This document shows, piece after piece, positions 51,884 to 54,802 of a stretch of DNA of 64,000 nucleotides (position 1 is its first letter; every line of letters begins with the position of its first letter). A model generated the notes under the pieces. The model was given only the letters and a program-made list of their open reading frames with translations. It did not search any database and was not told the DNA's origin. Origin of the DNA: Somniosus microcephalus. Its lineage: Eukaryota. The stretch covers positions 79,484,001 through 79,548,000 of the forward strand of contig CM126218.1 of assembly GCA_052327205.1 (NCBI GenBank), given 5' to 3'. The position numbers were made by a program, and so were the translations under genes.

Positions 51884-54802
51884 ATGCCTAAGCGTGGTAA
51901 CATCAACGATTTTAATTCCGAGGTAGAAGACTGGGCCACGTATGTGGAACGCATTGAGATCTATTGTGAGGCCAATAAAATAGAAGAAGATGACAAAGCT
52001 ATAACCTTGCTAAACTCGATGGGCGCGAAGACATATGGGCTCTTGAAGCATCTACTAGCACCAGCTAAACAGGCGGATCAGACTTTCGAGGATATTGTGA
52101 CTGTTCTGAAGGACCACTTGAACCCCACACCGTTGATGTTGGCAGAACGATTCAAATTCTATGCGAGAACGCAAAGGAAAGACGAAAGCAACGCAGAATA
52201 CTTGGTCGAACTGCGTAGACTAGCGAAACACTGCCAGTTTGGAGGGAATCTGACAGAGGCATTGCGAGACAAGTTCGTGTGCGGGTTGTCAAAGGAAGGA
52301 ACGCAAAAGCGACTACTCGAAGAGAACGACCTTACACTTGACAGGGCTGTCCTTATTGCAGCATCGCACGAAGCCGCAGTGAAGGGAACTGCGGAAATGC
52401 AGCTAAAGGCAGCGGCACTCAGTGTGGATCAAATTACCTCGAGTACAACAAAATGCTATCGTTGTGGGAAGACAACACACGACCAGAACCAATGCTGGTT
52501 TAAGAGCCAGGAATGTAGGAAATGTGGCAAACTGGGTCACATAGCTAAGGTATGCCGGTCAGGGAAGAAGACCAACAACCAAAGGAAGCCATCACAGGAA
52601 AAGTACAACAAGGTACACAAGGTGGCTGAGAAGAGTTCAGACGAACAGAATTCGGACTCAGACCCAAACGGCCAGGAGCTGGGCAGTCTGAGAATTCACA
52701 ATGTGAGTAAGGAAGCTGACCTACAAACTATCTGGGTCATGCTAAAAATAGCTGGAGTCCAAGTGAAAATGGAGTTGGACACTGGATCAGCTCTATCAGT
52801 CATAAATCGAAGGGATTACCACCGGCTATTCTCACATATACCCTTAAGAGATACCAAGTTCGTATTGCAGACATACACGGGGCATAAAGTATATCCCATG
52901 GGGAAGATAAAAGTCAAGGTGAGAGATGGGGGTAAAGAACACCCAAGAATGAACTTATACGTACTACCTGAGGGAGGACCACCACTTCTGGGACGGGAGT
53001 GGATCAAGAAAATAGACATGGAATGGCACTATCTAAAAGCCATAACGAGTGAGGACTCGGTGCAGACAATCAGCTCAGATTCTGAAACGGATGACGATAA
53101 GACCAACCCAAATATGAAAGACAAGGCTAAAATGGACTTGTCGACTAAGGTTGGAAGAACGAAGGCATGCATAAAGGCTTATGCTCCAGAGAAGAACAAA
53201 GTTTCAGAACAGAACTCCACCGAACAACGACAACATAGTTTGACAGAGAATTCTGAGTCTGTTCAGTTTACGGACATATCCATGACTGACGAACACCGAG
53301 CTCGGACTCAACTTTATTTCAAATTACGACAGCAAGTAGAACAAGTGAGTTACCGTCTCGAACAAGAGATGAAAACAATGAAAAAGTTCTATGACACCGA
53401 ATGGGAGAATCTGGAAAGACAACAGAAGCAGCTAGCTCAAGCAGAGAGCGACCATAGAGCCATTGTGACCAATTACCGATCACATCTCCCTTATGCTGTT
53501 CAGGAGGTAGAATATTTGCAGGAAGGAGCAAATGAAGAGGAATCTTCAGGAAGCCAGGATTTTATTCCCGTTCTTCTCTACGACTCCTTACAAGCAGAGT
53601 TTGAGAAGTTGAAGGAACAGTATGAACAGGCCCAGGCTACAATCCTGGAGGGGATTAACTCGGCAACCTCCGAAAAGCTAGTTTCAGTAGAAGCATATGA
53701 GCAACTAAAGGTTGAACATGAGCAAGAAGTCCAAAGGCTGCAGGAAATTCTTGATGAGCTCAAGGCCAAGACAGACTCATCGGTAGAAGTTCCATCCATA
53801 GATGAGAAATTAGAGGTGAAAGACATGGCAGAACATGAAAGACAAGATGTCCAAGAACTCATAAAAATATTGAAGGAAACCCAAGACAAATATGAGGCGG
53901 CAATGACCGAGGTTCAACAACTTGAAGAACAGATTCAACTGGGAATCCTTTCAGTGGAAGAAAAGGAAACTGTAAGAAACACAGAGGCTGTAAGAATGGC
54001 CCCTGAACATGAGCTAGAGAGCATCAAGGCGCAACTTCTCCGAGCGCTGGAAGCCAAAGTACAAGAGGAAAAGAAGGTGAAAGCATTGGAGGAAAAGGTG
54101 GATGAAATGGAGAAGACTCTGATCCACAGTGTTCCCGTGGAAGAGTTAACGGTCAGCCAACTCCTTCATATGCTGAGGGACAAGACTCTGCAATGGGAAC
54201 AATCTGAACACGAGCTTCAATCTTCAAAGGGAAGGAGTTCGGAGCTCTCAAAAGTTATGGAAATAGCTGAGGTTGCAACACAGATTTTACTGGGATGCCA
54301 AAAGTACGCTGAATCACGTCTATGTGAACAACAGAATGTTGAAACAGCTGCTCCAGTAGAAGGATTGAATAGCCCGATCAATCAATCCCCAATGGAAGGG
54401 GAAGTGTTGAAATCACAAATGAGGTCATTAGTGAAGGATTTGCAGGAAACCCAGGAAGAGCGGGATGAATATGAACGCATGAAAAAGTCTCTTCAGGAAA
54501 GATGTCTAGGGAGGGAACAACAGTCGGCTAACGTCCAGTTGGGTAAGGAAGAAGTAGCAGGCCCTCTCGCTAGACTAGTTCAGGACGACACCGAATATTA
54601 CCATGACCTGTTGAGTGACACGGAATATTACGAGGACTTGGCCTGCCCAGCTTGTGATGAAAACTCCCAAAGTGCAGAAATCAGGATGAAGCACTTAAAG
54701 TCTAAGGAACATAGGGAGATGGTGGCGCTACAGCTGGCAGCTGATAAGGGAGCCCCGAGAGTCTCCAAGAAGCAGAAAAGAAAAAGACAAAGCAGAAGGT
54801 GA
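51884..54802 (+). CDS. Chimeric retrotransposon polyprotein: Gag (two CCHC knuckles) + aspartic protease + captured host coiled-coil/zinc-finger mosaic
   Basis: Uninterrupted 972-aa ORF. Mag-type Gag N-terminus (EDWATYVER...AERFKFYARTQ). Knuckles CYRCGKTTHDQNQC and CRKCGKLGHIAKVC (52454-52555). Protease LDTGSA (DTG at 52778-52786) and LLGREW. Then an E/Q/K-rich region resembling STK10, ANKRD24 and DNAJC21. Confidence 0.92.
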   Translation: MPKRGNINDFNSEVEDWATYVERIEIYCEANKIEEDDKAITLLNSMGAKTYGLLKHLLAPAKQADQTFEDIVTVLKDHLNPTPLMLAERFKFYARTQRKDESNAEYLVELRRLAKHCQFGGNLTEALRDKFVCGLSKEGTQKRLLEENDLTLDRAVLIAASHEAAVKGTAEMQLKAAALSVDQITSSTTKCYRCGKTTHDQNQCWFKSQECRKCGKLGHIAKVCRSGKKTNNQRKPSQEKYNKVHKVAEKSSDEQNSDSDPNGQELGSLRIHNVSKEADLQTIWVMLKIAGVQVKMELDTGSALSVINRRDYHRLFSHIPLRDTKFVLQTYTGHKVYPMGKIKVKVRDGGKEHPRMNLYVLPEGGPPLLGREWIKKIDMEWHYLKAITSEDSVQTISSDSETDDDKTNPNMKDKAKMDLSTKVGRTKACIKAYAPEKNKVSEQNSTEQRQHSLTENSESVQFTDISMTDEHRARTQLYFKLRQQVEQVSYRLEQEMKTMKKFYDTEWENLERQQKQLAQAESDHRAIVTNYRSHLPYAVQEVEYLQEGANEEESSGSQDFIPVLLYDSLQAEFEKLKEQYEQAQATILEGINSATSEKLVSVEAYEQLKVEHEQEVQRLQEILDELKAKTDSSVEVPSIDEKLEVKDMAEHERQDVQELIKILKETQDKYEAAMTEVQQLEEQIQLGILSVEEKETVRNTEAVRMAPEHELESIKAQLLRALEAKVQEEKKVKALEEKVDEMEKTLIHSVPVEELTVSQLLHMLRDKTLQWEQSEHELQSSKGRSSELSKVMEIAEVATQILLGCQKYAESRLCEQQNVETAAPVEGLNSPINQSPMEGEVLKSQMRSLVKDLQETQEERDEYERMKKSLQERCLGREQQSANVQLGKEEVAGPLARLVQDDTEYYHDLLSDTEYYEDLACPACDENSQSAEIRMKHLKSKEHREMVALQLAADKGAPRVSKKQKRKRQSRR

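Follow-up and report, generated by a model that had tools for sequence, protein, structure and literature searches.

What a C2H2 zinc finger and a basic tail are doing at the very end of a retrotransposon's coding frame is the question raised by one locus in the shark Somniosus microcephalus. The locus lies in a window of 64,000 nt (assembly GCA_052327205.1, contig CM126218.1, positions 79,484,001 to 79,548,000 of the forward strand), in which a long terminal repeat (LTR) retrotransposon carries one long open reading frame (ORF); we call the element Ty3/Gypsy-type, a label taken from the type of its Gag and protease and not from a reverse transcriptase (RT). The sequence supports reading the end of this ORF as a host-type jaz/matrin C2H2 finger and basic tail that close a fusion of Gag, protease, and host fragments. 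Our preferred explanation, which we consider probable, is that the finger is worn and travels as a passenger in a frame that is kept open, the host pieces having been gained by serial mRNA capture through template switching. The finger is the least certain part of the element: its parent is putative, and it looks worn.

The piece occupies 54584-54799, the last 72 codons of the ORF and in the same frame, with the stop running through 54802. Residue numbers here are those of P0001, the stop-to-stop translation of a 984-codon frame. The piece contains the following features:

54644-54712, plus strand: jaz/matrin-class C2H2 finger, C-x2-C-x12-H-x5-H, with a non-hydrophobic core position (C933, C936, H949, H955)
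54587-54640, plus strand: in-frame repeat with a period of 30 nt (54587-54610 against 54617-54640, 20 of 24 nt alike)
54761-54799, plus strand: basic C-terminal tail, resembling a nuclear localization signal (NLS) by sequence

A preliminary description of this DNA had stated that all four zinc ligands are kept, and they are indeed present with the spacing given above. Shuffling residues 400-984 produced a pattern of the form C-x2-4-C-x12-H-x3-5-H in 16 of 100000 cases. The basic, NLS-like tail was likewise recovered at the sequence level, with a net charge of +9 over the last 14 residues and two motifs of the NLS pattern K(K/R)x(K/R), at residues 974 and 977. The duplication that had been described as 30 nt long is in frame and does have a period of 30 nt, but the match extends over 24 nt at 20/24. 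With the codons of the captured region shuffled, one of 300 trials reached its score; the repeat is real and old, and is not a clean 30-nt copy.

Several comparisons bear on the class of the finger. The jaz-type model proposed earlier as a check, Pfam zf-C2H2_jaz (PF12171), did match, although at 20.4 bits it fell under the cut-off of 22.6, and zf-C2H2_2 (PF12756) scored 20.7 bits against a cut-off of 26.9 (E about 5e-4 in both cases). In the atlas, zf-met/jaz clusters matched at 0.93 and the ten best families all belonged to one clan, with a recognition value of 2270 against a threshold of 2300. The best match in the PDB was the RNA-binding protein ZFa (E 0.12), with no close relative of the finger there. 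The residue four positions after the second Cys is Ser, where the aligned solved fingers of ZFa and FP1 have Leu or Phe, and the finger fails a PROSITE-type C2H2 core pattern. A single-sequence structure model was of low confidence (pLDDT 63.8), showed no strands, and gave no fold match at E 0.001. The ORF holds one finger only, where DNAJC21 and Jjj1 have two, and the DnaJ family is absent among its 10 Pfam matches at E up to 1. Compared with 16 ANKRD24, optineurin, and kinase proteins, the tail piece gave no match (local scores 29-38).

The preliminary description had matched the piece to DNAJC21. The jaz/matrin class fits this claim, while protein searches returned no match named DNAJC21. 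We nevertheless regard it as quite likely that the parent is the first finger of DNAJC21 with the lysine-rich stretch that follows. The in-frame loss of an acidic spacer, also given in the preliminary description, is putative. The DNAJC21 string in that description, itself unverified, is by eye identical to the finger at 20/36 positions. Seven of these lie in a row from the last His, and at none of the 11 positions directly before the first His do the two agree. The lack of in-register matches there hints at compensating insertions and deletions; if these occurred, preservation of the precise 12-residue interval would speak mildly for function.

Published material on DNAJC21 offers some further points of contact. 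Insect DNAJC21 is annotated with DnaJ and zf-C2H2_jaz domains in the accessible part of PMC7999391, so the finger class fits DNAJC21. The human variant V342M, given in the accessible text of PMC10119586, would fit the Val that stands four residues past the last His in the window, if the presumed position of the finger is right. A splice variant, c.983+1G>T, mentioned in the available portion of PMC6710477, implies that two exons meet near codon 328, within the presumed finger; the absence of an intron from the window at that position is what mRNA capture predicts. The same portion of that paper places the 60S role of DNAJC21 in its J-domain and in Hsp70 activation, and the J-domain is not captured in the element ORF. 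No DNAJC21 sequence was contained in the supplements of PMC4277396, PMC11277129, PMC8945262, PMC7700627, and PMC11436362 or in 12 of the 14 supplementary files of PMC6018634, which hold accession lists or annotation rows, nor in the accessible text of PMC5597180, PMC12872099, and PMC8945262.

The finger is preceded by a chain of other host fragments, which shares the reading frame of Gag and protease and stands in the place of RT, RNase H, and integrase:

51884-54802, plus strand: single ORF of 972 codons, comprising Gag, protease, and captured host pieces
51884-52558, plus strand: Gag, carrying two CCHC knuckles (sub-cut-off matches to Pfam Retrotrans_gag, PNMA, and zf-CCHC)
52736-53020, plus strand: aspartic protease, DTG motif intact (Pfam Asp_protease_2, above cut-off)
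53048-53257, plus strand: piece A of an SLK/STK10-type kinase, from the acidic linker and without the kinase domain (41/67 identical to P0057 residues 399-467)
53288-53440, plus strand: piece B of the same kinase, the start of the PKK coiled coil (P0057 residues 619-669, 36/56 in local alignment)
53423-53503, plus strand: near-C-terminal piece of ANKRD24/ankycorbin (24/27 identical to P0005 residues 1054-1080; ORF residues 526-552)
53498-54145, plus strand: middle coiled coil of ANKRD24/ankycorbin, without ankyrin repeats (179/212 identical to P0005 residues 490-705; ORF residues 551-766)
54140-54556, plus strand: optineurin piece with a 14-residue internal deletion (90/139 identical to P0027 residues 231-384; ORF residues 765-903)

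The stop-to-stop frame of 984 codons runs over 51848-54802 on the plus strand, and the first ATG, at 51884, gives a protein of 972 residues. Matches of the Gag region in the PDB are Gag and nucleocapsid proteins, and the arrangement of Gag with CCHC knuckles followed by an aspartic protease is that of Ty3/Gypsy elements. Parents were identified for ORF residues 401-903, at 59-89% identity. Kinase pieces A and B correspond to ORF residues 401-470 and 481-531, and piece B matches Pfam PKK at E 9e-5; P0057, the kinase that was matched, has a Pkinase plus PKK architecture, from which we take it to belong to the SLK/STK10 family. The two ANKRD24 pieces stand in scrambled order, the near-C-terminal piece ahead of the middle piece (53423-54145), and are joined at CAG/GAG. 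This order could reflect a double template switch or the capture of a back-spliced circular RNA; the ANKRD24 exon positions are presumed. The optineurin piece falls outside the NEMO, CC2-LZ, and zinc-finger domains of its parent. Apart from the start of PKK, the parental domains were not taken: the kinase domain, ankyrin repeats, NEMO, CC2-LZ, and the optineurin finger are all missing. At 54284-54325, within the optineurin piece, 14 residues stand in for about 28 of the parent. A compensated frameshift in this piece was considered and is only suggestive, the +1 frame being slightly more parent-like (191/2000 shuffles). Two short stretches of 10 and 9 residues, at 53258-53287 and 54557-54583 (ORF residues 471-480 and 904-912), had no match in the identified parents, whichever of the three frames was used.

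The element has partial host coding sequences from several parents in place of its internal ORFs, as LTR retrocopies do. At three junctions the neighboring parent matches share 2-6 residues, as seen at the protein level. Glu, Lys, and Gln make up 35% of the captured pieces, which are also rich in purines, a composition that would favor template switching at short similarities. Among the 57 protein matches for ORF residues 407-984, the best are all from cartilaginous fishes, and the ANKRD24 piece groups with Heptranchias with moderate support (83/87).

The setting of the ORF is that of a complete insertion, whose parts are as follows:

50570-50574, unstranded: left target-site duplication of 5 bp, identical to the five bases after the 3' LTR
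50575-50828, plus strand: 5' LTR, 254 nt, TG...CA ends (253/254 identical to the 3' LTR)
50829-51883, plus strand: leader of 1055 nt with zero ATG and a 108-nt tandem repeat
50830-50839, plus strand: primer-binding-site-like stretch, beginning TGG, assigned by sequence
55148-55832, unstranded: nested GC-rich insert, resembling a miniature inverted-repeat transposable element (MITE), with 16-nt terminal inverted repeats
55869-55880, plus strand: polypurine tract, assigned by sequence
55882-56135, plus strand: 3' LTR, 254 nt, one base different from the 5' LTR
56136-56140, unstranded: right target-site duplication

The LTR ends, the target duplication, the primer-binding-site-like stretch, and the polypurine tract together are those of an LTR retrotransposon, and the insertion is a complete, young, recently mobile one of a shark. 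The identity of the LTRs at 253/254 positions and the intact target duplication indicate that this copy inserted recently. The primer-binding-site-like stretch presumably corresponds to the 3' end of a tRNA-Ser. Neither the ORF (by Pfam) nor the 91 codons past its stop contain RT, RNase H, or integrase, other short frames not having been scanned, which indicates that the element is non-autonomous. The leader has no ATG where dinucleotide shuffles have a mean of 7.3, and 0/2000 shuffles were ATG-free, which suggests selection for translation of the ORF. A scan of 50000-57000 with Rfam gave no match, and no second copy of the element was seen within the window.

A 91-codon stretch at 54806-55078 stays open in frame past the double stop; it matched no protein family, with a single chance Pfam row at E 0.093 and no atlas match. 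The idea, formed by eye, that it is the decayed C-terminus of an integrase is unsupported, given the lack of any family match. The MITE-like insert lies inside the 3' part of the element, and similar end motifs occur at 16849 and at 50534, the latter 41 nt upstream of the 5' LTR; from this motif, the element itself may have inserted into a related repeat.

The captured pieces differ in how far they have moved from their parents. The optineurin piece has a branch length of 0.59 against a median of 0.071, and 11 of its 52 conserved columns are changed, eight of them radically, compared with 0-6 in each host orthologue (n=15). Capture was probably serial, with pieces of different age, and at least one older piece, that from optineurin, is probably free of its parent's constraint. 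All six pieces are in their parents' frames, for which (1/3)^6 = 0.0014 if the junction frames are independent, although switching between similar codons could bias them.

Taken together, these observations are consistent with the following course of events. At least six host mRNA fragments, the finger piece standing last in the chain, would have entered a Ty3/Gypsy-type element over several rounds in which the reverse transcriptase of a helper element switched templates onto co-packaged host mRNAs. The element would be translated and would move in trans. Selection would then keep one long open frame rather than the finger: a premature stop would leave a longer untranslated tail and could destabilize the RNA, so that an open frame would be favored. 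The finger itself has most likely drifted since its capture and rides as a passenger; the basic tail, like many such tracts, may still serve as a signal for the nucleus.

Several results weigh against this account, its DNAJC21 parentage included. None of 144 candidates reached E 0.01 in a word-seeded comparison of the last 100 residues with longer proteins, none of five reached E 10 in a comparison of the last 72 residues with proteins of 220-700 residues, and DNAJC21 was absent from the 57 matches to ORF residues 407-984. A full phmmer scan gave three unnamed matches at 32-33% identity, with 2-7 matched stretches each. Despite changes in the residues that separate them, all four ligands persist, as does their 12-residue spacing. 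In the middle piece of ANKRD24, 2 of 77 conserved columns changed, fewer than in any of 12 host orthologues (3-15), so that drift is not general; the piece may have been captured later or, on the reverse reading, be under constraint. That no stop interrupts the frame says little by itself about selection (P 0.012-0.33, by substitution count), the microhomology at the junctions is seen at the protein level only, and one copy of the element was examined.

The search with ORF residues 407-984 recovered an SLK-type parent just once in its 57 matches, which indicates that the seed stage misses short pieces. When a 36-residue finger was simulated in a 100-residue query (threshold E 0.001, 60 trials per identity), it was recovered in 6/60 trials at 20/36 identity and in 57/60 at 24/36. 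With about 10% power at 20/36 even in the most sensitive of them, the blank searches do not refute DNAJC21 parentage, and a library representative at least 24/36 identical to the finger is not likely. The preliminary description had named the lack of a DNAJC21 hit as telling against its reading; that hit is formally lacking, in searches of this power. The suggestion that ligand retention is a sign of selection is not supported. With 50-70% of background sites unchanged, chance alone would preserve all four ligands with P 0.06-0.24, which leaves their retention no proof of selection, and the core Ser and the sub-cut-off Pfam scores point the same way.

Could the finger and tail instead be a selected, working module that, as the preliminary description suggested, binds RNA or carries a complex into the nucleus? 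The element's own protease would release a coiled-coil protein of about 585 residues ending in this module, and the module would replace signals lost with the integrase. We think this unlikely: the intact ligands and spacing, the jaz/zf-met look-alikes and the RNA-binding ZFa as best PDB match, the two NLS-like motifs, an ORF that looks translated, and a position at the C-terminus, where an integrase would end, have to be set against the lost hydrophobic core residue, Pfam and atlas scores under their cut-offs, ligand retention within the reach of chance, and an adjoining optineurin piece under relaxed constraint. A broader version, which we find distinctly doubtful, is that the element was selected for a new protein in place of Pol, drawn from four host genes, with a coiled coil, a DNAJC21 finger, and a nuclear signal, and freed by the protease. 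Such a protein could grip helper RNA and enter the nucleus, or act as a decoy for an optineurin-type defense; if true, this would amount to domain shuffling under selection on the element itself.

Other alternatives concern the origin of the finger or the status of the whole locus. That the finger came from another jaz/matrin gene (for example ZNF622, or one of ZNF346/ZFa type), its DNAJC21 likeness being a family resemblance, would agree with zf-C2H2_2 scoring as well as zf-C2H2_jaz and with searches that named no DNAJC21; but those searches had little power, and 20/36 identities with seven in a row, in an unverified string, go beyond family likeness. The Val of V342M, as placed in the accessible text of PMC10119586, also agrees with the window, given the presumed last His, and overall we judge another parent improbable. 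Optineurin's own C-terminal finger, moved by an internal deletion, is scarcely credible as the source and can be regarded as largely refuted. The piece does follow the optineurin piece, and optineurin does end in C-x2-C-x12-H with a similar start, but identity is 4-7/31 in the 14 of 15 optineurins that hold the finger, their fourth ligand is a Cys at x3 directly before the protein end, and Pfam zf_C2H2_10 matches optineurin and not the captured piece. Domestication of the locus as a host gene, with the fusion protein serving the shark, is very improbable; the long intact ORF, the ATG-free leader, and the conserved ANKRD24 piece would suit it, but LTRs differing at 1/254 positions and an intact target duplication mark a recent insertion of old captured pieces, and no full-length relative was found among annotated shark proteins in the 407-984 search.

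Elsewhere in the window, a long TG-rich compound microsatellite array lies at 35078-36156. Direct repeats of 94-95% identity at 6661-7320 and 8759-9383, about 2.1 kb apart and near GC-rich tandem units, are possibly another repeat element, and an inverted repeat at 62647-63116 has 206-nt arms that are 94% complementary and 58 nt apart.

The locus has a wider interest. Most reported animal capture cases decay, whereas the frame of the shark element stays open and looks translated. Its pieces differ in age, so that the successive steps of exon shuffling would be readable from a family of copies, and selection on a new protein could be tested against selection on the open frame only. The literature searched, with subscription papers and repeat databases outside its scope, contained no report of such an element in sharks or vertebrates.

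Among known systems, the finger itself resembles that of DNAJC21/Jjj1 in being of the jaz class and, presumably, in its sequence and the lysine-rich tract that follows. It also shares spacing and a basic helix around the last His with the jaz/matrin RNA-binding fingers (PF12171, PF12874, PF12756; ZFa, PDB 1zu1), from which it differs in its scores below gathering cut-offs, its core Ser, and its being single. Compared with DNAJC21/Jjj1 as described in the accessible text of PMC10119586, PMC6710477, and PMC4938669, the captured piece has no J-domain, one finger rather than two, and an altered core.

For the element as a whole, the closest parallels are the LTR-mediated animal retrocopies of Tan et al. 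2016 (PMC5131818), attributed in the accessible text to capture via template switching. There, too, partial host mRNAs replace internal parts of the ORFs between the LTRs, chimeras have several parents (including a mouse locus of four genes and an Alu), and the copies can act as non-autonomous elements. In the same text, 14/21 older copies carry loss-of-function changes, and sharks are not among the species covered. Unlike those cases, the shark element has all its pieces in one frame with an unbroken Gag and protease, downstream of a leader that lacks ATG. Maize Bs1, as far as the accessible text of PMC5131818 and PMC13317346 describes it, similarly joins fragments of three unlinked host genes in one transcribed and translated chimeric ORF; it differs in belonging to a plant and in having one fragment out of frame. 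The shark element has three parents shown and a fourth probable, at least six in-frame pieces, and one gene scrambled. Multi-gene capture by LTR elements is thus known, and what differs here is the joining of six or more pieces in one frame with an intact Gag and protease, in a recent copy.

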